A stretch of DNA of 64,000 nucleotides from Patescibacteria group bacterium. Lineage in GTDB: Bacteria; Patescibacteriota; Minisyncoccia; Phycocordibacterales; SBAW01. This document shows positions 3,833-60,561 of this stretch, piece after piece. The stretch spans positions 2,018-66,017 of the forward strand of contig JACOWS010000004.1 in assembly GCA_016176685.1 (NCBI GenBank), in the 5' to 3' direction. The translations under genes and the position numbers were made by a program. The notes below the pieces were generated by a model. The model was not told where the DNA came from. It saw only the letters and a list, made by a program, of their open reading frames with translations, and searched no databases. Position 1 is the first letter of the stretch. Every line of letters begins with the position of its first letter.

Positions 3833-5626
3833 ATGTCTAACATACTCACGGATATTAAAACTGAACAAATAGGAGCCGACTTGTCGAAGGTCGTTGATAG
3901 AGTTTCAAAACAATATGACCGCCCGGATATTGCTTTTCAGAAAGAAGCAATCCAAAATTCTTGGGATGTTCGCAGTGATAAAAAGGAGGGGAAAGAGTGG
4001 CTATTTAAAATTTATGAATATAAGGACGGAAATCAGAAGACTCACGTCGTTGTAGAAGATTTTGGGACAAAGGGAATGAACAAAGAAAGGTGGGAGGCCT
4101 TTTCCTCACTATGGCGTCCTAAAAAAGATCGTGATGATGCTGGTGGAAAAGGACAAGGAAAGTTTGTATTGATGAACGCCTCCCAAGAACACGTTTTATT
4201 TGTGGAAAGTGTGAGTGATGATGCTGGTTATATTTGTAAATTTCTTCAGGATGGTAAAAAGAGTAGAGATGAAGAAAATTTCCAAATTTTTAAACATATT
4301 CCAAGCGTTAAACCCCTTGAGCACAAAGGAAGCAGAATTTGGGTATATGACGTTCGAGATGATTTTTTAAAAACACTACATTCCGAGGAATTTGCAGATT
4401 CAATAATAGAATGCTGGTGGCAAGTACTCGGACCCAGATTTAATGGAAAAATTTCTCTGTTTGATAAGGAGGTTGTGTATAAACCTCTTCCGTCCCCAAC
4501 GGAAGAAATAACCTTGTTTGAGAATCATCAGGTTGATGGGTTTGGCCGGATAAAAAGGCTTTGTCTCAGTTTTTATGCAGATAAAGTTCCGTCGGCTTTC
4601 GATGGAGTGATGGTTCAGCGAGCCAATATGATGATCGTTAAAATTCCCTTTGAAGTGCATGACAAAGAATATCAAGGTCGCTTTTCAGGATATATAGAAT
4701 TTGATGAAACGTTGGAAAAAGAGTTGAAGGAAATAGAAAGAAATGATCACTGTAGTTTTCAATATGAATCACCATGGAAAGAAATTAAGGTTCTTATAAA
4801 AGACGAGGTTAGTAAATTTATTACAAAGATCGTTCCATCGAAAGAACAACGCAAAACGATAAATATAAAAAATCTTGCCGAAGTTATTCAAAAAGCAAAC
4901 CAAATTATTGATGAATACTGTCCGGAAATTCTTGGTGGCGGAACAGTTGTGCCGCCGATTACTCCAAGGCCGAAGCCTCCAATCAGAATAAAACATCTTG
5001 CGGTCAATAAGAGAGAGGTGAAATGGGGCGATACAATCAAAGCGACTTGCGGGATACTTAACACTACCAGTGAGGATAAAAAGGTATCGCTTAATATTGA
5101 GATAAAAAGATTGGGAGCGAAAGTTCTTGAGGAAGAATATTCTCTAAAAATTAAAACTAGTGAATCTAAGCCGCTGAAATTAACCGAAATCAAGTTAGCC
5201 CAGAATAAATTTGATAAGGGGAAATATATTGTCCGTGCAATCTTGCGTGAACAGAGGCATGATCTTGATACTAAAACAACCAGTTTTTATCTTGAATCAA
5301 AAAGAGAGCCAGTTAAGAAAGGGTTTATCAAAGAAATTAGATTTTACGAATCTGATGAGCCGTTGAGAAATAAGCAGGTTAAAAGCGGAACTCTTGAAAT
5401 AAATTTAGGACACAAGGACTTTGCGAATATTTGGTCTGTTTTTGAAGAAAAACCAAATATTCAGACTAAACAGATTGGTTTCTTCATAATGAAACTTTGT
5501 CTCGACGAGGCAGTAAGAGAGCTGTTTAAATTGAAGTTAAAAGATGAGAGTTCGAAGGACATAGACGATATTGTTCAAGAAGTTAAAGAAATTCAAGATA
5601 GAATGTACTACGATGTCCATGCCTAA
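3833..5626 (+). CDS. GHKL/Bergerat-fold ATPase (MORC-like HATPase_c_3 family) with long C-terminal extension
   Basis: N-terminus carries Bergerat motifs: motif I EAIQNSWDV (ExxxNxxD), motif II VEDFGTKGM (DxGxG) and the G2 box GGKGQGKF (GxxGxG). 597 aa, about 37% GC, unlike the flanking genes. Confidence 0.75.
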   Translation: MSNILTDIKTEQIGADLSKVVDRVSKQYDRPDIAFQKEAIQNSWDVRSDKKEGKEWLFKIYEYKDGNQKTHVVVEDFGTKGMNKERWEAFSSLWRPKKDRDDAGGKGQGKFVLMNASQEHVLFVESVSDDAGYICKFLQDGKKSRDEENFQIFKHIPSVKPLEHKGSRIWVYDVRDDFLKTLHSEEFADSIIECWWQVLGPRFNGKISLFDKEVVYKPLPSPTEEITLFENHQVDGFGRIKRLCLSFYADKVPSAFDGVMVQRANMMIVKIPFEVHDKEYQGRFSGYIEFDETLEKELKEIERNDHCSFQYESPWKEIKVLIKDEVSKFITKIVPSKEQRKTINIKNLAEVIQKANQIIDEYCPEILGGGTVVPPITPRPKPPIRIKHLAVNKREVKWGDTIKATCGILNTTSEDKKVSLNIEIKRLGAKVLEEEYSLKIKTSESKPLKLTEIKLAQNKFDKGKYIVRAILREQRHDLDTKTTSFYLESKREPVKKGFIKEIRFYESDEPLRNKQVKSGTLEINLGHKDFANIWSVFEEKPNIQTKQIGFFIMKLCLDEAVRELFKLKLKDESSKDIDDIVQEVKEIQDRMYYDVHA

Positions 5627-25495: not shown

Positions 25496-25629
25496 TGCTT
25501 TAACGTAATAAATCTACTGTTCTTACAGTATAAGGGGTATATATGCGCGCGGCCGCGTTTGTGTTGATAACGATAGAAAAGCGCCACGCATTTGATGCGC
25601 GGCGCTCCTTAACCGTGTTGCTAGTTGTC

Positions 25630-35465: not shown

Positions 35466-36254
35466 ATGAAGAAGCTGCTTTCTGAAATAAAAAGATATTA
35501 TCGCGCACATAAACGCGACCTACCGTGGCGGCATACCCGCGACCCATACAAAATTTTGGTGTCGGAGATGATGCTCCAACAAACCCAAGTGGGGCGGGTA
35601 CTGCCATTTTATAAAAAGTTTATACGCGAGTTCCCGAATGCACGAACCTTGGCGAATGCAAAGTTGTCGGCCGTGTTAAAAATGTGGAGCGGCTTGGGCT
35701 ACAACCGCCGCGCGAAATACCTGCACGAAGCGGCGAAGATTATTGCGCGAGAGGGGATCATTGGGCAAAAGCTCCCGGGTGTAGGGCTATACACCGGCGC
35801 CGCAGTGGATGCTTTTGCTCATAACAAACCCACCGTTTTTGTCGAAACCAACATCCGCACCGTATTCTTTCATTCTTACATACTTGAGAATATAAGGATG
35901 ACCGATGCACAGCTGTTGCCGCTGGTTGGGCAGGCACTCCGGCAGTCCAAAATGCAGCCGCGGGATTTTTACGCGGCGCTCATGGACTACGGCGCGCATC
36001 TCAAAGGGCAGGGGGTGCGGCTCAACAAAAAAAGCGCGCACTACACACGCCCAAAAAAGTTTGAGGGCTCCACCCGCCAACTGCGGGGCGCGATACTAAA
36101 AATAGTGCTCCACGCGCCCCGCAGCACCCTAAGCTCTGTAACAAAAAACCTCCCGCGTTCTGCCAATTGGCAGAAGCGAGAGGTCTTGAGAGTGCTGGCC
36201 CAGCTGAAAAAAGAGGGGCTAGTTCGCCGTCACAAAGGAAAATATCTTGTGTGA
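35466..36254 (+). CDS. HhH-GPD family DNA glycosylase (MutY/EndoIII-like)
   Basis: LVSEMMLQQTQV and HhH-GPD region. No obvious C-terminal Fe-S cysteine cluster. Start taken at MKKLLSEI. Confidence 0.7.
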   Translation: MKKLLSEIKRYYRAHKRDLPWRHTRDPYKILVSEMMLQQTQVGRVLPFYKKFIREFPNARTLANAKLSAVLKMWSGLGYNRRAKYLHEAAKIIAREGIIGQKLPGVGLYTGAAVDAFAHNKPTVFVETNIRTVFFHSYILENIRMTDAQLLPLVGQALRQSKMQPRDFYAALMDYGAHLKGQGVRLNKKSAHYTRPKKFEGSTRQLRGAILKIVLHAPRSTLSSVTKNLPRSANWQKREVLRVLAQLKKEGLVRRHKGKYLV

Positions 36255-41533: not shown

Positions 41534-43180
41534 ATGGCAAAGCAAATTCTCTACAACGAAAAAGCTCGCCGCGCGCTTAAGGCGGGTATCGACAAGGCGG
41601 CGGGTGCCGTCAAGGTAACCTTGGGCCCGCGCGGCCGCAACGTCGCGCTCGACAAAGGATACGGCGGCCCGACCATCACCAACGACGGCGTTTCTATCGC
41701 CAAGGAAATAACATTGCGCGACAAGTTTGAAAACATGGGAGCCGAGATTGTAAAAGAGGTAGCCCAAAAAACCAACGACATCGCCGGCGACGGCACCACC
41801 ACCTCGGTGGTTCTCCTGCTGGCTTTGGTGGAAGAGGGGATGAAACATACCGAGGCGGGGCTCAACGCCATGGGCATACGTTCAGGCATAGAAAAAGCTG
41901 GTGCCGATGCGGTGACGGCACTGCGCGGCCTTGCAAAAAAGATTGCGGGAGACGAGGAAATCCGACAGGTTGCCACTATTGCCGCCGAGTCGGAAGAGGT
42001 AGGCAAAATTATCGCCGACACCATCGGCGAGGTGGGCAAAGATGGAGTTGTAACGGTGGAGGAGTCGCAGTCGCTGGGGATAGAAAAGGAGGTGGTGGAG
42101 GGTATGGAATTTGACCGCGGCTATGTGAGCGCCTATATGGTAACTGATGCTCAGCGGATGGAAGCATCAATGAAAGATGCGCCCATACTAATCACAGACA
42201 AAAAAATATCATCCGTGCAAGAAATTTTACCTGTGCTTGAAAAGATAGCGGGGAGTGGCAAAAAAGACCTCGTGATTATCGCCGACGATGTAGAGGGCGA
42301 GGCCTTGGCGACTTTTGTGCTCAATAAACTGCGCGGCACATTCAATATCCTTGCGGTTAAGGCACCGGGCTACGGCGACCGAAAAGAGGAGATGCTTCAG
42401 GACATCGCCACGGTGACCGGCGGACAGGTCATTTCAGAAAAAGTCGGCATCAAGTTCGAAAACGCGGAGATTGCCATGCTCGGCCGCGCCGCGCGCGTGG
42501 TGGCTACCAAGGACTCTACCGTAATCGTGGGAGGCAAGGGAGGCAAAAAAGATATAGAAAAACGCATTGCCGAAATCCGCGAACAGCTTGGGAAAACGGA
42601 ATCGAAGTTTGACAAAGAAAAGCTTGAGGAGCGGCTGGCAAAACTTATGGGCGGGGTGGCGGTCATACGCGTGGGCGCGGCGACCGAGACGGAGATGAAG
42701 TATCTTAAGCTCAAGATCGAAGACGCGGTTAACGCAACCAAGGCCGCAATAGAAGAGGGCGTGGTTGCCGGCGGCGGCACCGCACTGGTGCGGGCCGCGC
42801 AAAAAATAGAAGAAAATTTTGCAAAGACGAAAGAAAAAATGACCGTCGACGAGCGCATCGGATACGAAGTGGTGCTCAAGGCGCTTGAGATGCCACTGCG
42901 CCAAATTGCACAAAACGCCGGCTTTGACCCGGGCGTCGCGGTGCTTAAAATATCGGAGGGCAAGGGTAATGCGGGATACGATGCCGTGTCGGGGAAAGTC
43001 GTTCCAGACATGATGGAAGCGGGCATCATCGACCCGGTCAAGGTTACGCGCACGGCGCTCGAGCGTGCCACCTCCGCCGCCGCTATGCTTATAACGACCG
43101 AAGCGGCCGTAGCCGAAGAGCCAAAAGAGGAAAAAGATTCCCCCATCCCAGGCGGTGGGATGGGGGACATGGACTATTAA
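41534..43180 (+). CDS. groEL: Chaperonin GroEL
   Basis: [21 protein letters not shown]...C-terminal GGMGDMDY. Confidence 0.95.
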
Positions 43181-49183: not shown

Positions 49184-50866
49184 ATGGTAGGAGCCCTTAT
49201 GAGCATGGTGGGGCGCGAGATACGCGGTATGCACCATGCGGCATATGTGTTGGCCGGCTTTGCGCTTGGCTCGCAACTCTTGGCGCTGGTGCGCGACCGA
49301 CTGCTCGCGGCGCACTTCGGAGCCGGCCACACGCTCGACCTATACTATGCAGGATTCCGCATACCCGACCTGCTTTTTGCCACGGTGGCATCGCTCCTGT
49401 CGCTCTACGCACTCCTGCCGGTCTTATCAAAATTCGAAGCAGAGTCGCAGGGACAGATGGTGTCGTTTTTGCGGCACACTCTGCTCTTCTTTTTTGTGGC
49501 GATGGGAGTGATATCCCTGGTGCTTTTCTTCTTTGTGCCGAAGTTGGTCCTGTTGGTGGCACCGGGCTTAAGCGATGCGGCTTCGCGCGTCGACCTGGTG
49601 CCCTTGATACGCATACTCCTCTTGCAACCGATACTCCTGGGTGCATCAAATATTGTTGCGGCGTTGACACAGCTGCGGCATAGATTCCTTCTCTACTCGA
49701 TTTCGCCGCTCCTCTACAACGTCGGGATTATATTCGGCATCGTCGCCCTGTACCCGCGCTTTGGACTTGCAGGCCTGGGGTGGGGCGTAGTCCTGGGCGC
49801 GGCCATGCATTTTTTGGTCCAAGTGCCATTTTTTTCCGCCGAAAAGAGCGAGCACCTGCCCGCGCCGATTAGATGGAAAGGGCTCGCCCAGGTGCTCGCT
49901 CTTTCCGTTCCGCGCACGTTGGCGCTTGCGGCAGGTCAACTTTCTCTTTTGGCACTGGTGGCGCTTGCATCTCTCCTCTCACCGGGGTCTATAGCCGTGT
50001 TTATGTTCGCCTGGAACCTGCAAGCGGTTCCTCTTACCATCATTGGCGTATCCTACTCGGTTGCCGCCTTCCCGACGCTTGCAAGGTTCCACGCGTCCGG
50101 AGAGCGCGAAGCCTTCGTGGGCCACATTGAAGCGGCTTTGCGGCATATCTTTTTTTGGTCTATTCCTGCGATGGTCTTGGCGGTTGTTTTGCGGGCACAA
50201 TTGGTGCGCATCATCCTTGGAGCCGGAGCTTTTGACTGGGTGGCGACGCGCTTGACTGCCGCCGCTCTGGCGCTCTTTGTCCTTTCTCTTACGGCGCAGA
50301 GCGTGGTGCTTCTTTTTGCACGCGCCTACTACGCCGCCGGTAAGACAAAAACGCCGCTGGTGATGGGTATGGTGTCGGTTATTGTAACGGTGGCGAGCGC
50401 ACTCATACTCTCGTTCGGGTTCCACGCCAGCCAGTTTTGGAGATTTTTTTTGGAGTCGATTTTGCGCGTGTCCGATGTGGGAGGCACGACGGTCTTGATG
50501 CTTGCACTTAGTTTCACCATAGGGAGTTTGTTGCAGGCAACCGGTGCGCTACTATATCTAAAAAAAGAATTCCACATTTCCTACGCGGGCCTCTCGCGGC
50601 TTGCTTTCCAGAGTTTTAGCGCCGCGGTGTTGGGTGGCGCCGCCGCATACGGCGCGCTTGCCGCTGTCGGCCTTGTGGTTGATATAAACACCGTGGCCGG
50701 TATTACTACCCAAGGGGTCCTGGGAGGTATCGTGGGGCTTTTGGCGACAGGCGGCATGCTGTTAGCGCTCGGGAACCCGGAGATAGCCGAGGCATACGCT
50801 TCTATAAAACGGCGGTTTGAAGGGGAGCCTCAAGTGGCGCTGGAGCCGACGGACGTTTCGTCGTAG
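49184..50866 (+). CDS. murJ: Lipid II flippase MurJ (MviN)
   Basis: 14-TM MOP-superfamily sequence. N-terminus matches MurJ. Confidence 0.8.
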   Translation: MVGALMSMVGREIRGMHHAAYVLAGFALGSQLLALVRDRLLAAHFGAGHTLDLYYAGFRIPDLLFATVASLLSLYALLPVLSKFEAESQGQMVSFLRHTLLFFFVAMGVISLVLFFFVPKLVLLVAPGLSDAASRVDLVPLIRILLLQPILLGASNIVAALTQLRHRFLLYSISPLLYNVGIIFGIVALYPRFGLAGLGWGVVLGAAMHFLVQVPFFSAEKSEHLPAPIRWKGLAQVLALSVPRTLALAAGQLSLLALVALASLLSPGSIAVFMFAWNLQAVPLTIIGVSYSVAAFPTLARFHASGEREAFVGHIEAALRHIFFWSIPAMVLAVVLRAQLVRIILGAGAFDWVATRLTAAALALFVLSLTAQSVVLLFARAYYAAGKTKTPLVMGMVSVIVTVASALILSFGFHASQFWRFFLESILRVSDVGGTTVLMLALSFTIGSLLQATGALLYLKKEFHISYAGLSRLAFQSFSAAVLGGAAAYGALAAVGLVVDINTVAGITTQGVLGGIVGLLATGGMLLALGNPEIAEAYASIKRRFEGEPQVALEPTDVSS

Positions 50867-50878
50867 TATGCAGTACCG

Positions 50879-52729
50879 ATGCAGCACATTAGAAACTTCA
50901 GTATCATTGCGCACATAGACCACGGCAAGTCGACGCTTGCCGACCGTTTTTTAGAGCTCACCCATACGGTGGAGCGGCGCAAGATGCGCGCCCAGGTACT
51001 CGACTCGATGGAGCTTGAGCGCGAGCGCGGTATCACTATCAAAATGCAGCCCGTACGGATGCTATGGCGGCCTGTCCAAGGGTTCCCCTTGGAAAATGGA
51101 CGGGAATACGAGCTTAACTTGATTGACACGCCCGGGCACATCGACTTTTCCTACGAGGTGTCTCGCGCGCTCTGCGCTGTTGAGGGCGCAATACTCCTGG
51201 TGGATGCGACCCAGGGGATACAGGCGCAAACCTTGACCACCTTGCGCAGCGCGCGGGAGTTGGGGCTCGCCATAGTACCGGCTGTTTCAAAAATAGACTC
51301 GCCGCTTGCTCGGGTCGACGAAGTGCGCGCCGAGCTCGCTTTACTGTTGGAAGTGCCAAAAGAGTCTGTGCTTATGTGCTCCGGCAAAACGGGGGAAGGG
51401 GTGGCCGAGCTTTTGCAGGCCGTTATAGAGCGCGTGCCGCCGCCAAGCACAACCAAAAGTCCTCAAGGCAACGCCTTAACACCCGGGCTCTCCAAGACGT
51501 CGCCTTTGGAAGTACGGGCGCTAGTTTTTGACTTTGAGTATTCCGACCACCAAGGGGTCATCGTGTATGTGCGTTTGATAGACGGGGCGATTGCAAAAGG
51601 CGATGTGCTTGAGTTTGTCGCTGGAGAAAAAAAGTTCCAGGCACTTGAGGTCGGAACCTTCTCTCCGACACCGATTCCGTGCAAGCAGCTCGATGCGGGC
51701 GCCATAGGGTATGTGGTCACCGGTATCAAAGAGCCGGGCGTTGCGCGCGTCGGAGATACCGTGCGCGCGTATGGTGCAAAAACCACTCCTCTTTCCGGGT
51801 TTGCGGTGCCGTCCCCGGTGGTGTGGGCGAGCGTCTACCCGGAGAGTCAGGACGATTTTGCGGGGCTCCGGCAAGCGCTTATGCGTTTGCACCTGACGGA
51901 CGCATCATTGTCGTTTGAAGAAGAGTCTTCGGGGGTGTTGGGGCGCGGATTCCGCATTGGACTTTTGGGGATGCTTCACCTAGAAATTGTGACCGAGCGC
52001 TTGTACCGGGAGTTTAACCTCTCGCTTGTGGTTACCACCCCCACTATAACCTACGAGGTCGAAACAAAGCGCGGCGAGCGCCGCACCGTTTACTCGCCGT
52101 CTTTGTTCCCCGAGTACGCCGACATCGCGCAGGTGTGGGAACCCATGAGCGCCGTGGATATAATACTCCCCGCAGAGTTCCTGGGAGCAGTCACGCCGCT
52201 CCTTTTTGCACACGAGGCGTCCATAGAGTCGACAGAAAACTTTTCAGAAGGGCGATTGGTGATACGGGCGCTCATGCCGCTGCGCGAGCTTATGCGAAAT
52301 TTTTTCGACAAACTTAAAAGCGCTTCCCAAGGCTATGCCTCCATATCGTATGCACTGCGCGAGCTGCGCCCTGCAGATGTGGTGCGTCTCGACGTGTTGG
52401 TGGCGGAGGAACAGGTCCCTGCTTTTACCCGTATTGTGACACGGCATCGTGCCTACGAAGAGGCCACTGCCGCGGTGGAAAAACTGTATAAGATACTCCC
52501 ACGCCAGATGTTTGCCGCCAAAATACAAGGTCAGGCATTGGGGCGCATTCTTTCATCAAAAACACTGCCCGCAATGAGTAAAAATGTTACCCAGCACATG
52601 TACGGCGGTGACAGGACCCGCAAAATGAAGCTTTGGGAGAAGCAAAAAAAGGGTAAAGCAAAGATGAAGGAGCGCGGCAAGGTCAATATCCCCGAGGAGG
52701 TTTTTTTGAAGATGATTAAGTCGGAGTAG
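50879..52729 (+). CDS. lepA: Elongation factor 4 (LepA)
   Basis: IIAHIDHGKSTLADR and DTPGHIDF. C-terminal LepA-specific domain ending ...KMIKSE. Confidence 0.95.
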   Translation: MQHIRNFSIIAHIDHGKSTLADRFLELTHTVERRKMRAQVLDSMELERERGITIKMQPVRMLWRPVQGFPLENGREYELNLIDTPGHIDFSYEVSRALCAVEGAILLVDATQGIQAQTLTTLRSARELGLAIVPAVSKIDSPLARVDEVRAELALLLEVPKESVLMCSGKTGEGVAELLQAVIERVPPPSTTKSPQGNALTPGLSKTSPLEVRALVFDFEYSDHQGVIVYVRLIDGAIAKGDVLEFVAGEKKFQALEVGTFSPTPIPCKQLDAGAIGYVVTGIKEPGVARVGDTVRAYGAKTTPLSGFAVPSPVVWASVYPESQDDFAGLRQALMRLHLTDASLSFEEESSGVLGRGFRIGLLGMLHLEIVTERLYREFNLSLVVTTPTITYEVETKRGERRTVYSPSLFPEYADIAQVWEPMSAVDIILPAEFLGAVTPLLFAHEASIESTENFSEGRLVIRALMPLRELMRNFFDKLKSASQGYASISYALRELRPADVVRLDVLVAEEQVPAFTRIVTRHRAYEEATAAVEKLYKILPRQMFAAKIQGQALGRILSSKTLPAMSKNVTQHMYGGDRTRKMKLWEKQKKGKAKMKERGKVNIPEEVFLKMIKSE

Positions 52730-52878
52730 CGGCTGTTAGATTTAGATAAGGAGAGAAAAGGAGGCGAGTATCATGGAGATACTGACAGCAATACCCAGAA
52801 CCCACGCCACAATGCGGGTGTTGCGGTCCCTGTTTTTGCCAAATAAGCCAAACATATACAGCGTGTATACTACCATAC

Positions 52879-53274
52879 ATGCAGGACTTTCGTAAACCAA
52901 AACAGCGAGCTTTGAGGGTTTTTCGTGTCGCGATACGCAGTGTCGTCACTCTAGTACTTTTGGCGCTTGCGGTGGTGTCGGTACGCGCCGCATTTGGTAT
53001 GTACCAAACCTTTACCGTAGCCCTTGCCTCCGAGGAAGAAACCGCCAAAGAGCTTGCGATACTCAAGCAGCAGGAAACACAGATGGGGGCTGCGGTGGAG
53101 GGCCTTTTGACCGAGCGCGGGCTCGAGGCGCAGGTGCGCGCGCGGTACGGGTGGGGGAGGCCCGGGGAGGGGAAAATAGATGTGGTGAGAGACCCCGGGC
53201 TCTATGCCGAGGGTGGCCAGGCGCGGGGAGACAACGCCATAATCCGATTTTTCAAATCGCTGATAGGTTTATAA
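52879..53274 (+). CDS. Septum formation initiator family protein (FtsB/DivIC-like)
   Basis: Single TM plus coiled coil plus a conserved C-terminal region. Confidence 0.55.
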   Translation: MQDFRKPKQRALRVFRVAIRSVVTLVLLALAVVSVRAAFGMYQTFTVALASEEETAKELAILKQQETQMGAAVEGLLTERGLEAQVRARYGWGRPGEGKIDVVRDPGLYAEGGQARGDNAIIRFFKSLIGL

Positions 53275-53290
53275 AAATGATGTTTTTGTG

Positions 53291-53361
53291 TGCGGAATGC
53301 GAGAATCGAACTCGCGCCTACTGCTTGGGAAGCAGTCATTCTACCACTAAACTAATTCCGC
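53291..53361 (-). tRNA. tRNA-Gly (anticodon CCC)
   Basis: Acceptor GCGGAAT/ATTCCGC; anticodon arm ACTGC-TTCCCAA-GCAGT; T-arm GCGAG-TTCGATT-CTCGC. Confidence 0.8.
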
Positions 53362-53470
53362 CTTCGTCTCGCCGGAGCGAGACTTCGGCAAGGCGAGGCC
53401 CGCTGAAGTCCGCGAAGGCGGACTTGACAGCTATGCTATACTACAAGAAAGCTAATAATAATCATAACGT

Positions 53471-53713
53471 ATGGAAAAGAACGTCACCATATATTCAACA
53501 CCGACCTGCCACTTTTGCCACATGGCCAAAGAGTTTTTTAATGAAAAAGGGGTGCCGTTTACCAACTATGATGTGTCGGTAGACGCCGCCAAGCGCCAGG
53601 AAATGATCCAGCTCACCGGCCAGCTGGGCGTGCCGGTTATAGTTATAGACGGCGACCTGATGGTCGGTTTTGACCGCGCCAAACTCGCCGCCAAACTAGG
53701 GCTAGAGGCGTAA
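53471..53713 (+). CDS. Glutaredoxin-like protein
   Basis: VTIYSTPTCHFCHMAKEFF CxxC motif and GVPVIVIDG...GFD. Paralog of the gene at 6937..7218. Confidence 0.75.
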   Translation: MEKNVTIYSTPTCHFCHMAKEFFNEKGVPFTNYDVSVDAAKRQEMIQLTGQLGVPVIVIDGDLMVGFDRAKLAAKLGLEA

Positions 53714-53840
53714 ATAGAAAAAAGTAGAACCCCTCCAACAGAATTATGTTCCGCAAAAGGGGCTCACTCTAAAAGTAAGAGGGCGAGGGTTTTTAGTAAA
53801 GTACAGTATATTAAGTGCTATAGGTGTCGTTGTTGACTGT

Positions 53841-54038
53841 CTAAAACGATACCAGAAAACCGACCAAGCCAGCGGGTGAACGATGGATTTCGTCGGCACT
53901 AATGATGTCGTCCATCGATAGCACACTTTCTTCGGGGAGATTTCCCCAAACAAAAGAAATACGCTGTTTGTACCGGTCCTCATCCGTCATTTGTACAGTT
54001 CTGGCAACTTCAATGAGAGAAGTGAGTTCAGGATCCAT
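53841..54038 (-). CDS. Small hypothetical protein (65 aa)
   Basis: ATG (+strand 54036-54038) with an AGGAGA SD 6 nt upstream on the minus strand. Lies in an AT-rich spacer between tRNA genes. Confidence 0.4.
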   Translation of the reverse strand: MDPELTSLIEVARTVQMTDEDRYKQRISFVWGNLPEESVLSMDDIISADEIHRSPAGLVGFLVSF

Positions 54039-54210
54039 GATTTTCTCCTGGGTGTTTATGCCGAACCAATTTCGGCACATACACCAAGAGAAAACCTCCA
54101 AATTGATATTACCACACAATGGCGAATGTCCATACGCCCTGGTATAAATTGTGCCCTCACTAGGAACCCACCTCGCCGAAGACGTCGAGTCGAGACGGGT
54201 CGAACCCAAG

Positions 54211-54282
54211 TGCCCCTGCCAAGAATCGAACTTGGATTCTCGCGTTAGGAGTGCGAAGTTCTATCCATTGAACTACAGGGGC
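54211..54282 (-). tRNA. tRNA-Arg (anticodon CCT)
   Basis: Acceptor GCCCCTG/CAGGGGC; anticodon loop CTCCTAA; T-arm CCAAG-TTCGATT-CTTGG. One A-C mismatch at the base of the anticodon stem. Confidence 0.7.
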
Positions 54283-54322
54283 AGTAACAAAAATTTACCA
54301 CATTTGTGGTATAATTGCCTTT

Positions 54323-54616
54323 GTGGACCCGCAGATTGAAGAGTTAAAAGAGCTGGTGCGGCAAAACATCACGCTTTCGCAAGAGACAAACAACATCGTG
54401 CATGGCATGCGCAGTGCCGCGCGCTGGAGCCGTCTATTCCGCATGGTGTGGATCGTTGCAATACTTATTGCCTCCGGTGCGGCATATCTGTACTTTGCAC
54501 CCTACCTCGAGCAAATTATTGACCTCTACAACCAGGCGAGTGGGGCTTTGGAGCAACTGCGTGCATTTGGTGGACAAGCAACAAATGCTGTGCAAAACTT
54601 TACCCCTGGCCAGTAA
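54323..54616 (+). CDS. Hypothetical membrane protein (97 aa)
   Basis: GTG start at 54323, preceded by an extended -10 (TGgTATAAT at about 54307-54315). One TM helix. Confidence 0.4.
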   Translation: MDPQIEELKELVRQNITLSQETNNIVHGMRSAARWSRLFRMVWIVAILIASGAAYLYFAPYLEQIIDLYNQASGALEQLRAFGGQATNAVQNFTPGQ

Positions 54617-54622
54617 CTATAC

Positions 54623-54698
54623 GCTTGGGTAGCTCAGTTGGTAGAGCGCTTCCCTGAAGAGGAAGATGTCGCCGGTTCGAGCCCGGCCCCAAGCACCA
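54623..54698 (+). tRNA. tRNA-Phe (anticodon GAA), CCA encoded
   Basis: Acceptor GCTTGGG/CCCAAGC; anticodon arm CTTCC-CTGAAGA-GGAAG; T-arm GCCGG-TTCGAGC-CCGGC; 3' ACCA. Confidence 0.85.
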
Positions 54699-55282
54699 AG
54701 TAGGAAATTGCAAGGTGGAGCTCACCGCCGCGCAGGGCGCGGCGGCTCGCGCGTAGCCCAGCTTCGGGCTGAATTGGAATTGGCGATTTCGCTTTCGGGA
54801 AAAAGAAAATTTTAGACATACAACTCAGAAGCTCAAAAACCCTTGTTTTACAAGGTATTTTTGTATTTCAGCTTGTTGCCGCGACAACTATCGGCACGAC
54901 CGGGGCAACGCCGCGACATGGCACCGCCCCACCCAGAAGACAGGTCAGTTGAACTCCGCCGCGTGAGAACTGTATAAGCCCTCGACCTGGGCCTCTATAC
55001 AAAAACTCACCTTGGCGGTGTCCCCACGACGGAGGCATAGAGCCCTCGGGGACTAGACAGGGACAGGAAGTACCCAATCATCCATTCGTTTAGCCAGAGG
55101 TTCTGGCAACACAGGCCCGCTATCTCCAATGAGAAGCGGGCCTTACTACTTTCCGGCTTCTCGTATGCTATTGACACGGCATTACACACATGATATTCTA
55201 TTGGCCGGGTAGTTCAGGCAAGCGAATGAGGTTGATGTCAGGGGCCGCAGTCGCGGCTTCCACAGCTCCTAGGGAGCACGAA

Positions 55283-55570
55283 ATGAAAATTGTACGCGAC
55301 ATTTCCTACGACGGAATCGACCTTTGCAACCTCATACGCATCGCACCCGACGAACCGTTCTACGTCGACGAGCTCATCGCCATCGCGGAAGCCGTCGGCG
55401 CAACCTATATCGACCGTATAACGTATTACCGAACCCTTAAAAACGGCCAGGAAAACAAGACGACGGTCGAAACGAAATATTACGTCATCGAAATCACGGG
55501 CAGAGGACCTAAAAAATCCTACACTCGCGAACAACTGTGGGAGGCCTTGGCCACCTACAACGATGCGTAA
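55283..55570 (+). CDS. Hypothetical protein (95 aa)
   Basis: ATG at 55283 with an AGGGAG SD 6 nt upstream. A possible sigma70-like promoter TTGACA-N17-TATTCT lies at about 55155-55183. Confidence 0.45.
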   Translation: MKIVRDISYDGIDLCNLIRIAPDEPFYVDELIAIAEAVGATYIDRITYYRTLKNGQENKTTVETKYYVIEITGRGPKKSYTREQLWEALATYNDA

Positions 55571-55824
55571 CACCTCGGGAGCGGCAACAACCGCTCCCTT
55601 TCTCTTTTCTATTTTGAAAGAACAATTGTGTGCGCGAGACGCGCACTCGAACCTTTTTCGCCAAAGAAAAATTTGATATTGTCAGCGGAGCGGCTTCCCT
55701 CCTTCGCTAAAGCTACGGACGGGCAGGCGCCGCGTTCGGCATTTTGGAAGCCAGATGTGCCGCGCCGCCGCCCCCACTGGCGGCGCTGGTTCGCGCTATT
55801 TCAAGTATTCTGCACAACGAACGG

Positions 55825-56358
55825 TTAATTCGACCTTACTTTGAGTTTTGCGTGGCGGCCTTTGTCGAGTTTAGGGAGTCTAATGGTAAGCAAGCCATGC
55901 TTCTCGGAGGCTTCGGCCTCCTCAATTTCTACCTCCTGCGGCAGCACGATAGTACGGGAAAAAGAGCCCCAGTACAATTCTTGAAAGAAGAAATCGTCCC
56001 CGCCGCCTTCAGTATGCTGCTCGCGCTTGCCGCGGATGGTAACCATGTCGCGGGTGAGAGAGACATCCAGGTCTTCCGGCCTGACACCAGCAATCATCGC
56101 CTTTATCACAATATGAGTCGGCGTTTGGTACACATCTACTGAAAGCTCTCCCTCAAGCTCTTCTGCGGGCTCGGAAAGGAGCGAGCCATTTGTTGTACCC
56201 GCCGATGCACTTCCGGTTTTGCCCTTTATATTGAGCGTACGGCTTTCCCCAACGGCAGGTGTGGCGCTCCCGCTCTCGAGGTCGTCAAAAGAAAAATCTC
56301 GCTCGGCACTGCCGCCACCCGTTAGCCAGTCGAAAAGAGATTTTTTGTTGCGAGCCAT
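55825..56358 (-). CDS. Hsp20/alpha-crystallin family small heat shock protein
   Basis: Alpha-crystallin domain (VDVYQTPTHIVIKAMIAGVRPEDLDVSL...VTIRGKRE...GSFSRTIVLP...GLLTIRLPK) with an N-terminal extension. Confidence 0.8.
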   Translation of the reverse strand: MARNKKSLFDWLTGGGSAERDFSFDDLESGSATPAVGESRTLNIKGKTGSASAGTTNGSLLSEPAEELEGELSVDVYQTPTHIVIKAMIAGVRPEDLDVSLTRDMVTIRGKREQHTEGGGDDFFFQELYWGSFSRTIVLPQEVEIEEAEASEKHGLLTIRLPKLDKGRHAKLKVRSN

Positions 56359-56380
56359 AGTAAATAGGTTCTAAAATATG

Positions 56381-57133
56381 TTAACAATAATCCCTCGCGG
56401 GTAGTTTTACCCTCTCAACCAGTAGTAAAGCCGCAACAATTCCGCACCAGATGAGGAGGAATATCCAGAAAGTGGCTCCACTGCTCGTTCCTAGTATAAA
56501 AAAATTAAACAGCGTATGCAAGACAACGGCGAGGATAACTCCGGCGGCGGCCGCAAACCAGCGCGCAGCGACGCTTTTGTAAAAAGCAAATGCAAGCGCT
56601 ACGCCTATTGTGGCCGAGGAGAGCGTGTGCAGGAGCGTAGCGCCGATAAAGCGCAGGTCTCCCGTCACCACGGTACGCAGTGCGTCGCCCTGGCTTAAGG
56701 GCCCCATCAAAAAGAGCGTGTTTTCTATGGCGGAGAAGCCCAGTGCCGCCGTTACCAGGTAGATAACGGCGTCCAACGGCTCGTCAAATACCGCACTGCG
56801 CAGGGCTATAAAGTAAGCGGCCGCAAATTTGGCAAGCTCTTCAATAATCGCCCAGGAGAACAGCACTAGCGGGGTAGAGACGTGCAGGCCCAATAGCAGT
56901 AGCGGGTGGGGAGTGGAAGAGGCAAGAACTTGTTGCATAAAAAGCTCAAGGTAGTAAACAGGGAAAATCGCGAGCCCGCCGGCTATAAAAGTGAGTATTA
57001 TGTAGCGCTTGGGCTCTGGATCGCAGCGATCCTCCAGGAGCCAAAAAAACAGCCACAGGAGGGCGGGCAGAACTCCGCCCAAAAAGGCAATCGCCAACAC
57101 CGGAGAGAACATACCGTATAGTATATAGCACAA
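56381..57133 (-). CDS. PrsW/CPBP-type intramembrane metalloprotease family protein
   Basis: Polytopic protein with EELAKF, FSAIEN and H...N motifs typical of PrsW-like proteases. Confidence 0.55.
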   Translation of the reverse strand: MCYILYGMFSPVLAIAFLGGVLPALLWLFFWLLEDRCDPEPKRYIILTFIAGGLAIFPVYYLELFMQQVLASSTPHPLLLLGLHVSTPLVLFSWAIIEELAKFAAAYFIALRSAVFDEPLDAVIYLVTAALGFSAIENTLFLMGPLSQGDALRTVVTGDLRFIGATLLHTLSSATIGVALAFAFYKSVAARWFAAAAGVILAVVLHTLFNFFILGTSSGATFWIFLLIWCGIVAALLLVERVKLPARDYC

Positions 57134-57148
57134 ACTCTCTTGCAGGGG

Positions 57149-59305
57149 CTATTCGCGAACTTGTGGCCACGGTGCCACCATCAATAGCTCTTTTGTGCCG
57201 GGTATGGACCCCCAAATTTCTTCGGTAATAAACGGCATGAACGGGTGCAAGAGCTTGAGCGAGCCGGACAACACGGACATAAGCAGGCGTTTGCGGGAAG
57301 CGACCTCTTCCGGCGTGCCGGTTTTGAGTATTGACTTGCTCTCTTCCAGTATGTTTGCGGCAAACTCGTCCCACAGGTAGTGATATATTTTTTCCGCAGC
57401 GAGGTAGATGCGGTACTCCTCAAGGTCATGGGTTATGTCGGTTGCGAGCGCATCAAACTGCGCCTGGCACTCTTGGTCTTTGGCAACCAAGGCAAGGCCT
57501 TGGGAACCCGGGCTTAAGGCGTTGCCTTGGTCTGTATTTTCCAACACAAAGCGCGCGACATTCCACAGCTTGTTTGCAAAGTGTTTGTAAGATCGTATTT
57601 TGTCTTCGGCAAGGGCCATATCAGTTCCCGGCGTGTTACCGATCAGTAGCGCCATACGCAGTGCGTCAGTCCCGTACTTTTCGGCGACGTCGAGCGGGTT
57701 TATCACGTTGCCTTTGCTTTTGCTCATTTTTTGCTTTTGAGCATCGCGCACCAAGCCATGCAGGTACACGTCGCGGAAAGGCACCTCGCCCGTGCGGTAG
57801 AGCCCGAGCATTATCATCCGCATGACCCAGAAAAATAGAATGTCATGCCCCGTCTCCATAACACTGGTAGGGTAGTGGTTTTTGAAGTCAGGCGAGTCCG
57901 GGTAGCCGAGTGCCGCAAACGGCCATTGTCCGGAAGAGAACCAGGTATCAAAGGTGTCCGTGTCACGCACCCAACCCTCCCCGGGCGGCTTTTCGCCGAT
58001 ATACATTTCTTCACTAGCCCCCTCCTGTGCGGTCTTGGGCCGAAACCAGGCGGGGATGGGGATACCCCACACTATCTGGCGGGAAATGTTCCAGTCGCGC
58101 AATTGCTCCAGCCAATGAAAGAAAATTTTTCGATATTGCTCGCTCACAAAATGCACGCGTCCGTCTTCAACCGCCGTGCGGGCAAGGTCGGCGAGAGGCG
58201 CCATTTTGACAAACCATTGCGGCAAAATGCGCGGTTCGAGCACATCATTTTCATTTTTGTAATTGACCAGGACGGTATGAGTATACTCCGCATCCACTTT
58301 CTCCACTAAACCTTTCTCGGCCAAGTCTTTTGCCACCGCCGCGCGTGCCTCCATAACCTTCATCCCGGCATATTTACCGCACTTTTCCGTGAGTCTGCCA
58401 TAGCGGTCTATAACCTCAACCGCGGGGAGGTTGTGGCGCTGTGCTACCTCGAAGTCGTTGGGGTCGTGTGCCGGAGTGATTTTGACCACCCCGGTTCCAA
58501 ACTCGGGGTCCACATACTCGTCGGCTATGACTTTTAGCTTAACTCTGCCGATAAGGCCATCAAACTCAATTTCTTTGCCTACCCATTCTTTGTAGCGAGA
58601 GTCATTGGGGTTAACAGCCACTGCGGTATCACCAAACTTGGTTTCCGGCCGCACGGTTGCAAGTACAAACGGCCCGTATTTAAGGTAGTACAGCGGGTCT
58701 TTGCGCTCCACCGCCCTTGTTTCAAGGTCGGAAAGGGACGTTTGGTACTTGGTCGACCAATTGACCGGCCGTACCCCGCGGTACACGAGCCCGTCATCGT
58801 AGAGTTTTTTAAACGTGTCGTAAACCGTTTTTATAATGTCGGGGTCGAGGGTAAATTTCTCTCGGCTCCAGTCGCACGATGCGCCAAGCTGGCGTAGCTG
58901 GCCCTCGGTAAATTTTTTATTTTCAAGCGTAAAGGCAAGCGTCTCTTTATAAAATTCCTCGCGCTCCATCTTAAAGCGCGAACGGCCTTCTTTCTCCAGC
59001 TTTTTTTCATACACAATTTGGGTTTCAAACCCGGCGTGGTCCATGCCCGGCAACCACAGCGTTTTGTACCCTTGCATGCGCTTAAAGCGGATAAGGAGGT
59101 CTTGAAGCGTCACAAAGAGCGCGTGCCCCACATGCAAAGAGCCGTTGGCATTAGGCGGCGGCATAATAATCGTGTAGGGCTCGGTGCACTCGCCGGGCAG
59201 ATTGTCTGGGTTAAAGTAGCCCGACTCCTCCCATTTTTTGTATAGGGGGCCTTCTACCTCTGTGGGGTCATACGGCTTTTTAAACTTATCGAGCATACCG
59301 CTCAC
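57149..59305 (-). CDS. valS: Valine--tRNA ligase (short form lacking C-terminal coiled coil)
   Basis: PPPNANGSLHVGHAL (HIGH) and KMSKSKGN. 718 aa. Confidence 0.85.
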   Translation of the reverse strand: MSGMLDKFKKPYDPTEVEGPLYKKWEESGYFNPDNLPGECTEPYTIIMPPPNANGSLHVGHALFVTLQDLLIRFKRMQGYKTLWLPGMDHAGFETQIVYEKKLEKEGRSRFKMEREEFYKETLAFTLENKKFTEGQLRQLGASCDWSREKFTLDPDIIKTVYDTFKKLYDDGLVYRGVRPVNWSTKYQTSLSDLETRAVERKDPLYYLKYGPFVLATVRPETKFGDTAVAVNPNDSRYKEWVGKEIEFDGLIGRVKLKVIADEYVDPEFGTGVVKITPAHDPNDFEVAQRHNLPAVEVIDRYGRLTEKCGKYAGMKVMEARAAVAKDLAEKGLVEKVDAEYTHTVLVNYKNENDVLEPRILPQWFVKMAPLADLARTAVEDGRVHFVSEQYRKIFFHWLEQLRDWNISRQIVWGIPIPAWFRPKTAQEGASEEMYIGEKPPGEGWVRDTDTFDTWFSSGQWPFAALGYPDSPDFKNHYPTSVMETGHDILFFWVMRMIMLGLYRTGEVPFRDVYLHGLVRDAQKQKMSKSKGNVINPLDVAEKYGTDALRMALLIGNTPGTDMALAEDKIRSYKHFANKLWNVARFVLENTDQGNALSPGSQGLALVAKDQECQAQFDALATDITHDLEEYRIYLAAEKIYHYLWDEFAANILEESKSILKTGTPEEVASRKRLLMSVLSGSLKLLHPFMPFITEEIWGSIPGTKELLMVAPWPQVRE

Positions 59306-59343
59306 TTTAGCATTTTAAGGTTCGACCTTGAAGAGCCTCGTGT

Positions 59344-60561
59344 TTAAGGTCGAACCTTGGCAATTGAGAGGTTTCCCACGGCACGAACTTCCTCTTTGGC
59401 CGCGTCATCGAGGCCGGCAAGAGCGCGGGCCAGGGCCGCTTCGGCTATCATAATCGCGTTGTCGCCGGTAATAGAGAGCTCGGGCAGGCGCACCTCTACA
59501 CCAGGAAACTCGTCGGCCACTAGTTTTTGCAACGTAACGCGCAGGTAAGCGTTGGCCGCAACCCCGCCGCCAATGACAAATGTTTGTGCACCAGTTTGTA
59601 TAAGCGCTTTGCGCGTTTTTGCGACAAATACATCCGCCACCGCATCTTCAAACTCGCGGGCAAACGCCGCCTTTTCTTCTTTGATTAAAGGCGACTCCTT
59701 AGCCCGGGAAGGTGTCGCCTTGGTGTATTCACGTAACGCATAGAGCGCCGCCGTCTTAAGGCCAGAGAACGAGACGTCGCAATTGTCTGTCTTGATCATG
59801 GGACGTGGAAGCCTCCAAGAAAAACCCTCCAGCAAAGGTCCTCGGGTTTCCCCACTCGCCGACAATCTGCCAGTCGGCGAGGTGGGGCCAGACCATTTGC
59901 CAGAGGGTTTTTCTCTCCGGCTTTGTATCGCCAGTTTCGAAATCTCCGGCCCGCCGGGGTAGGGGAGCCCGAGCATCCGAGCCACCTTGTCGAACGCCTC
60001 GCCCACAGCATCGTCCAAGGTCTCTCCGATCACTTCATATTTAAACCACTCCCGCATTAGCACAAACTCGGTATGCCCGCCGGAGATTAAAAGAGCCAAC
60101 ACCGGCAGCTGCACCCCCCGCAACTCACCGGACATACCAACATTCTCAAGTTTGTTGGTATGTCGTATGAGGGAGGAAATCAAATGGCCTTCCATATGGT
60201 TTGCGGGGAGGAGCGGCTTGTGCCAATCCTGCGCAAGCTTTTTTGCAAACTCGATGCCCTGCCACAGCGCGGGCTCGAGCCCGGGCCCCGCCGTTACCGC
60301 AATAGCGTCAATATCTAACGGCGACTCCTTAGCCCGGGGGGGTGTTGCCTTGAAGATTTGTTCAAAAAGTATCGGCAAGTTTTTTTGATGCTCGCGCTTG
60401 GCCAGGTTGGGGTACACGCCGCCGTAGGGCGCGTGTAGTTTGGCTTGCGAGAGGAGCGTGGCCTTCAGTACGCGAAAGGAGAAGCCGTCAGAGATTTTTT
60501 CTCCTTCGACAACGGCCACACCGGTTTCATCACAACTTGTTTCGATTGCAAGAATTTTCAT
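59344..60561 (-). CDS. tsaD: tRNA N6-adenosine threonylcarbamoyltransferase TsaD (Kae1/YgjD family) with three short insertions
   Basis: MKILAIETSCDETGVAVV, HMEGHL and SGGHTEF motifs. 405 aa against a typical length of about 340. Confidence 0.85.
   Translation of the reverse strand: MKILAIETSCDETGVAVVEGEKISDGFSFRVLKATLLSQAKLHAPYGGVYPNLAKREHQKNLPILFEQIFKATPPRAKESPLDIDAIAVTAGPGLEPALWQGIEFAKKLAQDWHKPLLPANHMEGHLISSLIRHTNKLENVGMSGELRGVQLPVLALLISGGHTEFVLMREWFKYEVIGETLDDAVGEAFDKVARMLGLPYPGGPEISKLAIQSRREKPSGKWSGPTSPTGRLSASGETRGPLLEGFSWRLPRPMIKTDNCDVSFSGLKTAALYALREYTKATPSRAKESPLIKEEKAAFAREFEDAVADVFVAKTRKALIQTGAQTFVIGGGVAANAYLRVTLQKLVADEFPGVEVRLPELSITGDNAIMIAEAALARALAGLDDAAKEEVRAVGNLSIAKVRP
59688..59723 (+). 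repeat. 34-nt hairpin-forming repeat, copy A, inside tsaD (AAGGCGACTCCTTAGCCCGGGAAGGTGTCGCCTT)
   Basis: Near-identical to the copy at 60317..60352. Contains an 8-bp inverted repeat AAGGCGAC/GTCGCCTT. Encodes KATPSRAKESPL in the tsaD frame. Confidence 0.6.
60317..60352 (+). repeat. 34-nt hairpin-forming repeat, copy B, inside tsaD
   Basis: GGCGACTCCTTAGCCCGGGGGGGTGTTGCCTT. Encodes KATPPRAKESPL. Confidence 0.6.

Follow-up and report, generated by a model that had tools for sequence, protein, structure and literature searches.

REPIN-like hairpins within tsaD and other protein-coding genes of Patescibacteria and their candidate RAYT-like transposase

REPINs are doublets of repetitive extragenic palindromic (REP) sequences forming a hairpin, and the REP-associated tyrosine transposase (RAYT) is a single-copy, vertically inherited gene (Bertels and Rainey, 2011; PMC3337134, PMC3116915). 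Tagged REPs, 20–40-bp palindromes that carry GTAG or CGTC, are found within genes of eight phyla, Patescibacteria not being among them (Di Nocera et al., 2013; PMC3733652); some genes, such as uvrB of R. conorii, are hit twice, the host genes are often those of replication, repair or RNA modification and the inserts are thought to form flexible loops (PMC3733652). According to PMC10969869, which summarises Ogata et al. (2000), Rickettsia palindromic elements (RPEs) reside in frame in unrelated housekeeping genes, are translated and are compatible with the protein fold; they are described as ∼100–150 bp long, as belonging to the Rickettsia-specific families RPE-1 to RPE-10 and as having no known dedicated transposase. 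Coding inverted repeats have also been reported for mitochondrial genes of Nematomorpha (PMC6649704), where they are perfect, up to 284 bp long and translated in both arms. Here we analyse a 64-kb stretch of DNA (64,000 nucleotides; hereafter, the window) from a Patescibacteria group bacterium (assembly GCA_016176685.1, contig JACOWS010000004.1), in which the essential gene tsaD carries two copies of a 34-nt repeat, and compare it with these systems.

We consider it likely, with a probability of about 0.75, that the tsaD repeats are REPIN-type elements from a family that is dispersed in Patescibacteria genomes and mobilised by a RAYT-like Y1/HUH transposase. As in the REPIN/RAYT systems, a short imperfect palindrome is present in two inverted copies that surround a spacer and yield a hairpin, an architecture seen in the arms and in one of the two tsaD copies (copy D). 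The copies are numerous and dispersed (five in the 64-kb window, up to 10 loci in related metagenome-assembled genomes, MAGs), and fall into subfamilies with compensated stems. In relatives, though not in the window, these units also stand on either side of a candidate single-copy gene of the IS200-like Y1/HUH type. The Patescibacteria unit differs from its classical counterparts in being only 13 nt long with a 3-nt centre, in forming doublets of 34–42 nt, in the absence of a GTAG tag and in its host phylum; moreover, classical REPs are predominantly extragenic, whereas the copies described here are mostly intragenic and predicted to be translated.

The GTAG- and CGTC-tagged REPs are likewise short palindromes inside known genes, some of which are hit twice, but they are defined by an unpaired end tag that is absent here and their intragenic copies are a minority. 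RPEs, too, are palindromes lying in frame in housekeeping open reading frames (ORFs; here those of TsaD, ValS, LepA, GatB, PepA and RecG) of hosts with reduced genomes, and the translated inserts resemble them as predicted surface loops. The Patescibacteria elements are, however, 34–42 nt long and tied to a RAYT-like gene, a distinction that is based on published descriptions of RPEs. The Nematomorpha palindromes also are inverted repeats embedded in protein-coding sequence with both arms translated, but they are long, perfect repeats of an organelle, whereas those described here form a short, dispersed family with a candidate transposase. We found no paper linking Patescibacteria with REP, REPIN, RAYT or RPE-like intragenic repeats in the full-text literature, the coverage of which is incomplete.

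Hairpin elements of tsaD and of the window

The tsaD gene occupies positions 59344–60561 of the minus strand, encodes 405 amino acids (Pfam TsaD, E=3e-69) and carries inserts at four sites, A to D. A preliminary description of this DNA had reported a hairpin-forming element present twice in tsaD in the same orientation and encoding near-identical peptides at two places that looked like insertions. As we confirmed, the window contains exactly two copies of the 19-mer GGCGACTCCTTAGCCCGGG (59690–59708 and 60320–60338, plus strand), whereas 100 shuffles of its sequence contained none. The full direct repeat is 37 nt long (59686–59722 and 60316–60352, 89% identity), with a spacing of 630 nt, or 210 codons, and both copies are in frame. 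The element proper comprises 34 nt. At site D (59688–59721, minus strand) it is an intact doublet that reads AAGGCGACACCTT-CCCGGGCT-AAGGAGTCGCCTT on the coding strand and encodes amino acids 281–292 (peptide KATPSRAKESPL), and at site A (60318–60351, minus strand) it is a decayed second copy that reads AAGGCAACACCCC-CCCGGGCT-AAGGAGTCGCCGT and encodes amino acids 71–82 (peptide KATPPRAKESPL); the two differ at 4 of the 34 positions. The 8-bp inverted repeat ascribed to each copy holds for the first one, whose 13-nt arms pair at 12 of 13 positions around an 8-nt spacer (DNA fold –11.3 kcal/mol, z=–4.3), but not for the second, in which 8 of 13 positions pair and the fold is no better than those of shuffled sequences (z=+0.7). 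The second copy was also misread in its first letters, which are ACGG and not AAGG.

Both peptides are indeed insertions, as judged by close orthologs and by solved TsaD structures, relative to which all four sites, A to D, align with gaps. In an AF2 model of TsaD (mean pLDDT 83.6) the inserts are predicted to be coil or are modelled with low confidence, with values below 50 for residues 74–78 and 220–245. The closest TsaD proteins come from Patescibacteria and are 65–86% identical to the one studied here, the 86% cluster including a protein of Candidatus Adlerbacteria; among the close relatives the lengths range from 343 to 442 amino acids and the differences are confined to a few sites. Codon alignment of ten syntenic orthologs showed the 34-nt element at site D in seven of them, a different hairpin in one (L088, AAGGTCCGACCTT-AACACCGGGCTCTCC-AAGATCGGACCTT) and little or nothing in two. 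Site A contains the element in the window, L001 and L004 and a decayed form of it in L008, and is empty in the remaining 6 of the 10. On a rough neighbour-joining tree the carriers of the site D element are scattered, and their sisters have the other hairpin type at the same place. Hairpins of the AAGG-N5-CCTT form are found at the same permissive sites in a distant TsaD clade as well. The tsaD gene of a member of Paceibacterota (L033:1856–3241, 462 aa) contains five such hairpins, each with a different stem core, at or near the permissive sites used in the window.

The arm of the element is a near-palindromic 13-mer with the consensus AAGGCGWCGCCTT and the general form AAGG-N5-CCTT; the commonest version, AAGGCGACGCCTT / AAGGCGTCGCCTT, is palindromic apart from its central base. 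The AAGG and CCTT ends are conserved, and the five central bases of the stem vary, with at least 20 cores observed, each of them with a complementary partner. The loops are conserved too and are all built around CCCGGG: CCNNNGCT (8 nt), AACACCNGGGCTCTYC (16 nt) and a 14-nt relative. A search with the loop alone for the 16-nt-loop subfamily mostly recovered copies that had already been selected by their stems and is not an independent test of pairing. All 34-nt copies have an A-A mismatch of the stem in common and thus go back to one master sequence. In a common variant of the arm G is changed to A, and only the strand that is antisense to tsaD then retains a G-T wobble.

With the family defined strictly, by 13-nt arms of the form AAGG-N5-CCTT that are complementary with no more than two mismatches and a loop of 4–22 nt, the window contains four hairpins, in lepA, in valS, in the tsaD/valS spacer and at site D of tsaD, and the decayed copy at site A is a fifth member. 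No family hairpin arose in 200 simulated windows (first-order Markov). The 42-nt hairpin of the spacer (59317–59358; AAGGTTCGACCTT-16 nt-AAGGTCGAACCTT, z=–4.6) overlaps the final codons of tsaD (KVRP*), and L006 has the same hairpin at the same place. The valS member lies in frame at 57486–57531 of the minus strand (AAGGCAACGCCTT-AAGCCCGGGTTCCC-AAGGCCTTGCCTT, peptide GNALSPGSQGLAL; z=–3.6), spans 57489–57528 under the strict definition and is present in the window and L001 only, the site being empty in seven other orthologs. The 42-nt member in lepA (51465–51506, plus strand; AAGGCAACGCCTT-AACACCCGGGCTCTCC-AAGACGTCGCCTT), also in frame, is decaying and its fold is not significant (z=–0.6); in L088 and L001 the decay has gone further, in a stepwise manner. 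Four of the five window copies are inside ORFs of at least 170 amino acids. All five are located in the last 9 kb (51465–60351) and none in the first 51 kb. At the site of the decaying lepA hairpin, the lepA genes of L004 (12186–14216) and L007 (10058–11968) have inserts of 24–60 amino acids with a common KSSDLLS segment; two of three of these long-insert segments fold well (z=–3.8 and –2.5). Rfam at its gathering thresholds recognised six tRNAs in the window and no family that matches the hairpins. Of the lineage-specific insertions identified in six syntenic genes, 3 of 25 folded with z<–3, as did 6 of 144 control segments, under a definition of inserts that missed those present in the majority of orthologs and cut the edges of hairpins.

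The inserts at the two other tsaD sites are also hairpins. Site C (59809–59923) is the third insert of about 30 amino acids that had been placed between the two copies: it is an imperfect palindrome of 115 nt, has outer arms of 28 nt and a 14-nt hairpin further in, encodes ...KWSGPTSPTGRLSASGETRGPLLEGFSW and has a DNA fold of –40.1 kcal/mol (z=–7.0). In the closest relative (L001:10650–10761) this insert is inverted, being 85.7% identical to the reverse complement along 112 nt, which is why unrelated peptides of ∼30 amino acids occupy site C in TsaD proteins that are 86% identical. Comparison of the palindrome with all fetched loci gave matches in tsaD orthologs only. Site B (60124–60171) is occupied by a hairpin of a second family (CATACCAACA...TGTTGGTATG, encoding HTNKLENVGMSGE; z=–5.45), with the stem CATWCCAACA...TGTTGGWATG; orthologs have doubly compensated stems at this site (CATTCTA.../...TAGAATG), and a perfect copy lies between convergent genes on another Patescibacteria contig (L027:6916–6945), the one intergenic match among all fetched loci. 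The 10-mer CACCTCGCCG or its complement, among the most over-represented 10-mers of the window, occurs there six times (1535, 12123, 22903, 42025, 54169 and 59875). One of the six forms the inner stem of the palindrome at site C; others are in conserved GEV-coding stretches and may be explained by codon usage.

Dispersal across genomes and association with a RAYT-like gene

A scan of species-representative genomes with the pattern AAGGCRACNCCTT-N4-20-AAGGNGTYGCCTT returned 76 loci, of which 55 belong to Patescibacteria-type MAGs, namely those of Kaiserbacteria, Adlerbacteria, Vogelbacteria, Nomurabacteria, Paceibacterota and Saccharibacteria and two MAGs with the same TsaD type. One MAG had 10 loci, with perfect stems, and several had 3–9. 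The 21 loci outside this group mostly have 4-nt loops and resemble ordinary terminators, the exception being Lacibacter. Scanning of metagenomes for the exact 34-nt type added 28 loci in at least 12 contexts. The suggestion of a miniature repeat element tolerated in an essential gene is therefore supported, the element being a member of a hairpin family that is dispersed in many Patescibacteria genomes, where it occupies numerous genes as well as intergenic sites.

Twenty-nine of the genome-scan loci are inside ORFs of at least 250 amino acids. The host genes identified with Pfam are those of RecG, PepA (M17), GatB, a PilB-type ATPase, TsaD, a class-V aminotransferase, LepA, SMC, a Mur ligase, CysRS, IF-2, UvrC, PNPase, MnmA and Fmt; the 34-nt element is also found upstream of PilB, in an ORF of 1039 amino acids, in other ORFs, between genes and across stop codons. 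Four of its six possible readings are free of stop codons and two contain one. The 34-nt type is read as KATPSxAKESP, as RRHLPxLRSRL in the next frame of the same strand and as GDSLAxEGVAL on the opposite strand. Two GatB orthologs have the element in the same loop in opposite orientations, and two PepA orthologs have it at the same place in different frames. Thus, given the multiple frames and strands and the intergenic copies, it is the DNA and not the peptide that the copies have in common.

Two other leads came to nothing. A scan of viral contigs with a loose pattern gave one match, in a DNA methyltransferase gene, which forms no hairpin and is attributable to chance. Interpretation of the family as a DNA-uptake sequence was dropped, as its density is ∼1 per 13 kb and what is conserved is a paired doublet rather than a short single-strand motif.

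Candidate transposases were sought by tblastn with approximate Y1-transposase queries, followed by tests of the retrieved loci with curated models. The first lead was an ORF beside a hairpin in two genomes of Lacibacter (Bacteroidota). This ORF (L080:5306–5971) matches the NCBIfam model REP_Tyr_transpos with E=5.6e-16 and 58.7 bits, below the equivalog cut-off of 80, had no match in a Pfam search and is flanked by three hairpins with the arms AAAAAGGCGACACCTT / AAGGTGTYGYCTTTTT. The hairpin arms of the two Lacibacter loci (L080:5168–6076 and L035:1077–1984) have the core AAGGCGACACCTT in common with the Patescibacteria family, a likeness that could reflect common REP/RAYT descent, lateral transfer or terminator-like convergence.

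With the Lacibacter protein as a query, we reached an ORF of Kaiserbacteria (L046:7233–7964, 244 aa) that contains the motifs YHVFSRG, HPH and YVHLNP and reaches 23.4 bits with the Y1_Tnp model of Pfam (cut-off 23; E=7e-5) and 27.5 bits with REP_Tyr_transpos of NCBIfam (cut-off 80; E=2.4e-6). A doublet, AAGGCGACGCCTT-TATCAATA-AAGGCGTCGCCTT (L046:7196–7229), abuts the stop codon of this RAYT-like ORF, and a second one, with the spacer TATCGATA, is located ∼38 nt upstream of its start codon, in what we take to be the next contig block (L015). The same MAG has further family copies in L034, L062, L076 and L084. At E≤1e-5, the relatives of this protein number more than 1000. The best 120 include just four with an organism name, which is Candidatus Kaiserbacteria in two cases and Candidatus Paceibacterota and Patescibacteria group bacterium in one case each; three are annotated as 'REP element-mobilizing transposase RayT'.

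Three RAYT-like relatives, from five contigs (L118–L122), were compared. The gene on L121/L122 has a single unit on each side, upstream AAGGCGACGCCTT and at the other end AAGGCGTCGCCTT, which overlaps the stop codon; the two are the sole such 13-mers in 12.7 kb. On L120 the gene has GAGGCGTCGCCTC on both sides, again the sole such 13-mers in the locus, and on L118 it has one GAGGCGACGCCTC unit upstream; the flanking units of L120 and L118 represent the GAGGCGWCGCCTC variant of the 13-mer. In four related lineages (L046/L015, L121/L122, L120 and L118), the 13-mer or this close variant therefore flanks a single-copy RAYT-like gene. On L118–L120 the gene lies between alaS and a gene for an M16 peptidase, next to ribosomal protein genes, and this constant position fits the single-copy, vertically inherited habit of RAYTs (PMC3337134).

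Origin and maintenance of the elements

The mechanism that we propose starts from two inverted 13-nt REP units (AAGGCGWCGCCTT; here AAGGCGACACCTT and AAGGAGTCGCCTT), which would form the 34-nt hairpin around the 8-nt spacer CCNNNGCT. The host's single-copy RAYT-like Y1/HUH enzyme would recognise this hairpin in single-stranded DNA and occasionally copy it elsewhere, a role suggested by the known REP/RAYT systems and by the presence of the same 13-mer on the flanks of the RAYT-like gene in relatives. Because these genomes are ∼90% coding and have very little intergenic space, many insertions would fall within genes. They would survive only where the reading frame stays open and the site is a permissive surface loop; such selection would account for the repeated use of the same few loops in TsaD, GatB, PepA and LepA. 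The surviving copies would be translated as short coil peptides that are probably neutral for the function of the host proteins. Later on, a copy might be kept nearly unchanged (site D), decay (site A, lepA), become inverted or give way at its site to another member of the family; the inversions (site C, GatB) and the perfected stems would be the behaviour expected of palindromes during replication.

Conservation at site D is exceptional. In the seven orthologs with the element, codon identity, given the same amino acid, is 0.83 versus 0.48 in the rest of the gene, and nucleotide identity is 0.92 versus 0.69 elsewhere in tsaD, with 0–4 substitutions per 34 nt among orthologs at 65–86% amino acid identity; the extreme case is L007, with 34 of 34 bases identical at 68% protein identity. 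Site D ranks first for synonymous conservation among 335 sliding 12-codon windows of tsaD. Since no other stretch of tsaD is as strongly conserved at synonymous positions as the intact copy, the conservation acts on the DNA. Either ongoing conversion from other copies or selection on the DNA or RNA could underlie it.

Several observations count against the REPIN reading. Such strong conservation is not predicted for a neutral selfish insert. The flanks of 19 oriented 34-nt copies contain neither the GTAG or CGTC tag or its complement (CGTC is found only within the stem and the centre of the 13-mer) nor a target-site duplication or conserved flank. Unlike classical REPs, ∼60% of the metagenome copies are inside ORFs of at least 170 amino acids. 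The 64-kb window contains no RAYT-like gene, so that the link is known from relatives only; in these, the matches to the curated models are weak, lying at the threshold for Pfam and under the cut-off for NCBIfam, and the order of L046 and L015 is deduced from the 8-kb block structure and from likeness to the region upstream of the gene in L121. Finally, near-identical strains (L001/L002/L003 and L004/L005; 99.9% identical) have no indels over 11–13 kb and thus no sign of recent movement. Together with the mixed persistence and decay of the copies, this indicates that the elements are old and rarely move, some being kept and others eroding.

A purely local origin, in which one 36-nt stretch of tsaD reached a second site of the gene by duplication or gene conversion and no genome-wide element exists, would fit the finding that sites A and D of any one genome agree in their loop variant (CCCGGG for the window and L001, CCAARG for L004), that copy A of L004 is nearer to its own copy D (four differences) than to copy A of the window (nine differences) and that tsaD of the L022 clade also contains one hairpin in two copies. 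We nevertheless regard it as very unlikely, given the identical 34 nt in GatB, PepA, RecG, upstream of PilB, in the 1039-aa ORF and at intergenic sites of many genomes. With at least 12 other contexts for the same 34 nt, recombination-mediated duplication, which the preliminary description offered as another possibility, is not the whole story, although copying or conversion between the sites may contribute. Conservation of the peptide KATPSRAKESPL itself as a functional linear motif, for interaction or modification, is hardly credible: the peptide is hydrophilic, predicted to be coil and well conserved at site D in seven orthologs, but orthologous positions of PepA and GatB translate the same DNA in other frames or from the other strand into unrelated peptides, there are copies outside genes, copy A and the lepA copy decay, and selection on a peptide does not explain conserved synonymous positions.

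Those synonymous positions would be accounted for if the hairpins were host cis-acting elements under selection, such as DNA sites for the RAYT or another factor or determinants of mRNA stability or pausing, an interpretation that is compatible with a mobile REPIN origin. Retention of the loop, of the AAGG/CCTT ends and of the A-A mismatch in all 34-nt copies, the compensated stems and the wobble confined to the tsaD-antisense strand point the same way. Yet the elements lie either way round with respect to transcription, the decay of several copies does no apparent harm, their presence at a site is patchy among close relatives and Rfam has no matching family, so that we rate a cis-acting role as improbable, if worth keeping in mind. 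Formation of hairpins de novo at each site, by template switching or quasi-palindrome correction during replication, could produce the many stem cores, each perfectly complementary, and the 115-nt palindrome inverted between close relatives. It would not produce the identical 34 nt, common loops and common AAGG/CCTT ends at unrelated loci of different genomes, or the REP units on the flanks of RAYT-like genes; these data contradict it as the family's origin, for which it is highly improbable, although stem perfection and inversions may still be explained in this way. A dispersed REPIN-type family thus remains our preferred explanation.

Other features of the window and implications

The MurJ gene contains a long hairpin (49840–49907) with 19-nt arms, paired at 18 of 19 positions, and a 30-nt loop, and further strong hairpins are found within ORFs of the window at 5425–5462, 25580–25606 and 36081–36124. 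A perfect 12-nt inverted repeat, TCCCCCATCCCA ggcgg TGGGATGGGGGA, lies at 43139–43167, 11–14 nt upstream of the GroEL stop codon. The surroundings of tsaD in relatives include other mobile genes (L089:11504–12817, L005:415–2881 and L009:162–941), with an ORF showing a faint Transposase_20 match between tsaD and valS and, upstream of tsaD, genes for a resolvase or recombinase and ORFs for LAGLIDADG endonucleases; the window contains none of them.

If the elements are what we propose, some puzzling extra loops in the core proteins of ultra-small, host-dependent bacteria would be explained as translated tiny DNA repeats, and the same four loops of TsaD, hit repeatedly, would constitute a natural experiment on the tolerance of essential enzymes to insertions. 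Such segments should be masked in annotation and in phylogenetic work, since one and the same DNA codes for unrelated peptides in orthologs. A broader proposal, which we make tentatively and regard as possible but doubtful, is that Patescibacteria carry an old, vertically inherited REPIN–RAYT system with hairpins mainly in essential genes, some of them conserved as DNA over deep divergence for a role at the nucleic-acid level. If this were true, the hairpins would be a major source of lineage-specific insertions in Patescibacteria proteins and would be maintained for RAYT binding, replication or transcript control and not merely tolerated. The strong DNA-level conservation of some copies does raise the question of whether the host makes use of the hairpins, and their association with a RAYT-like gene would extend the REP/RAYT world to a very large and poorly studied part of the bacterial tree.

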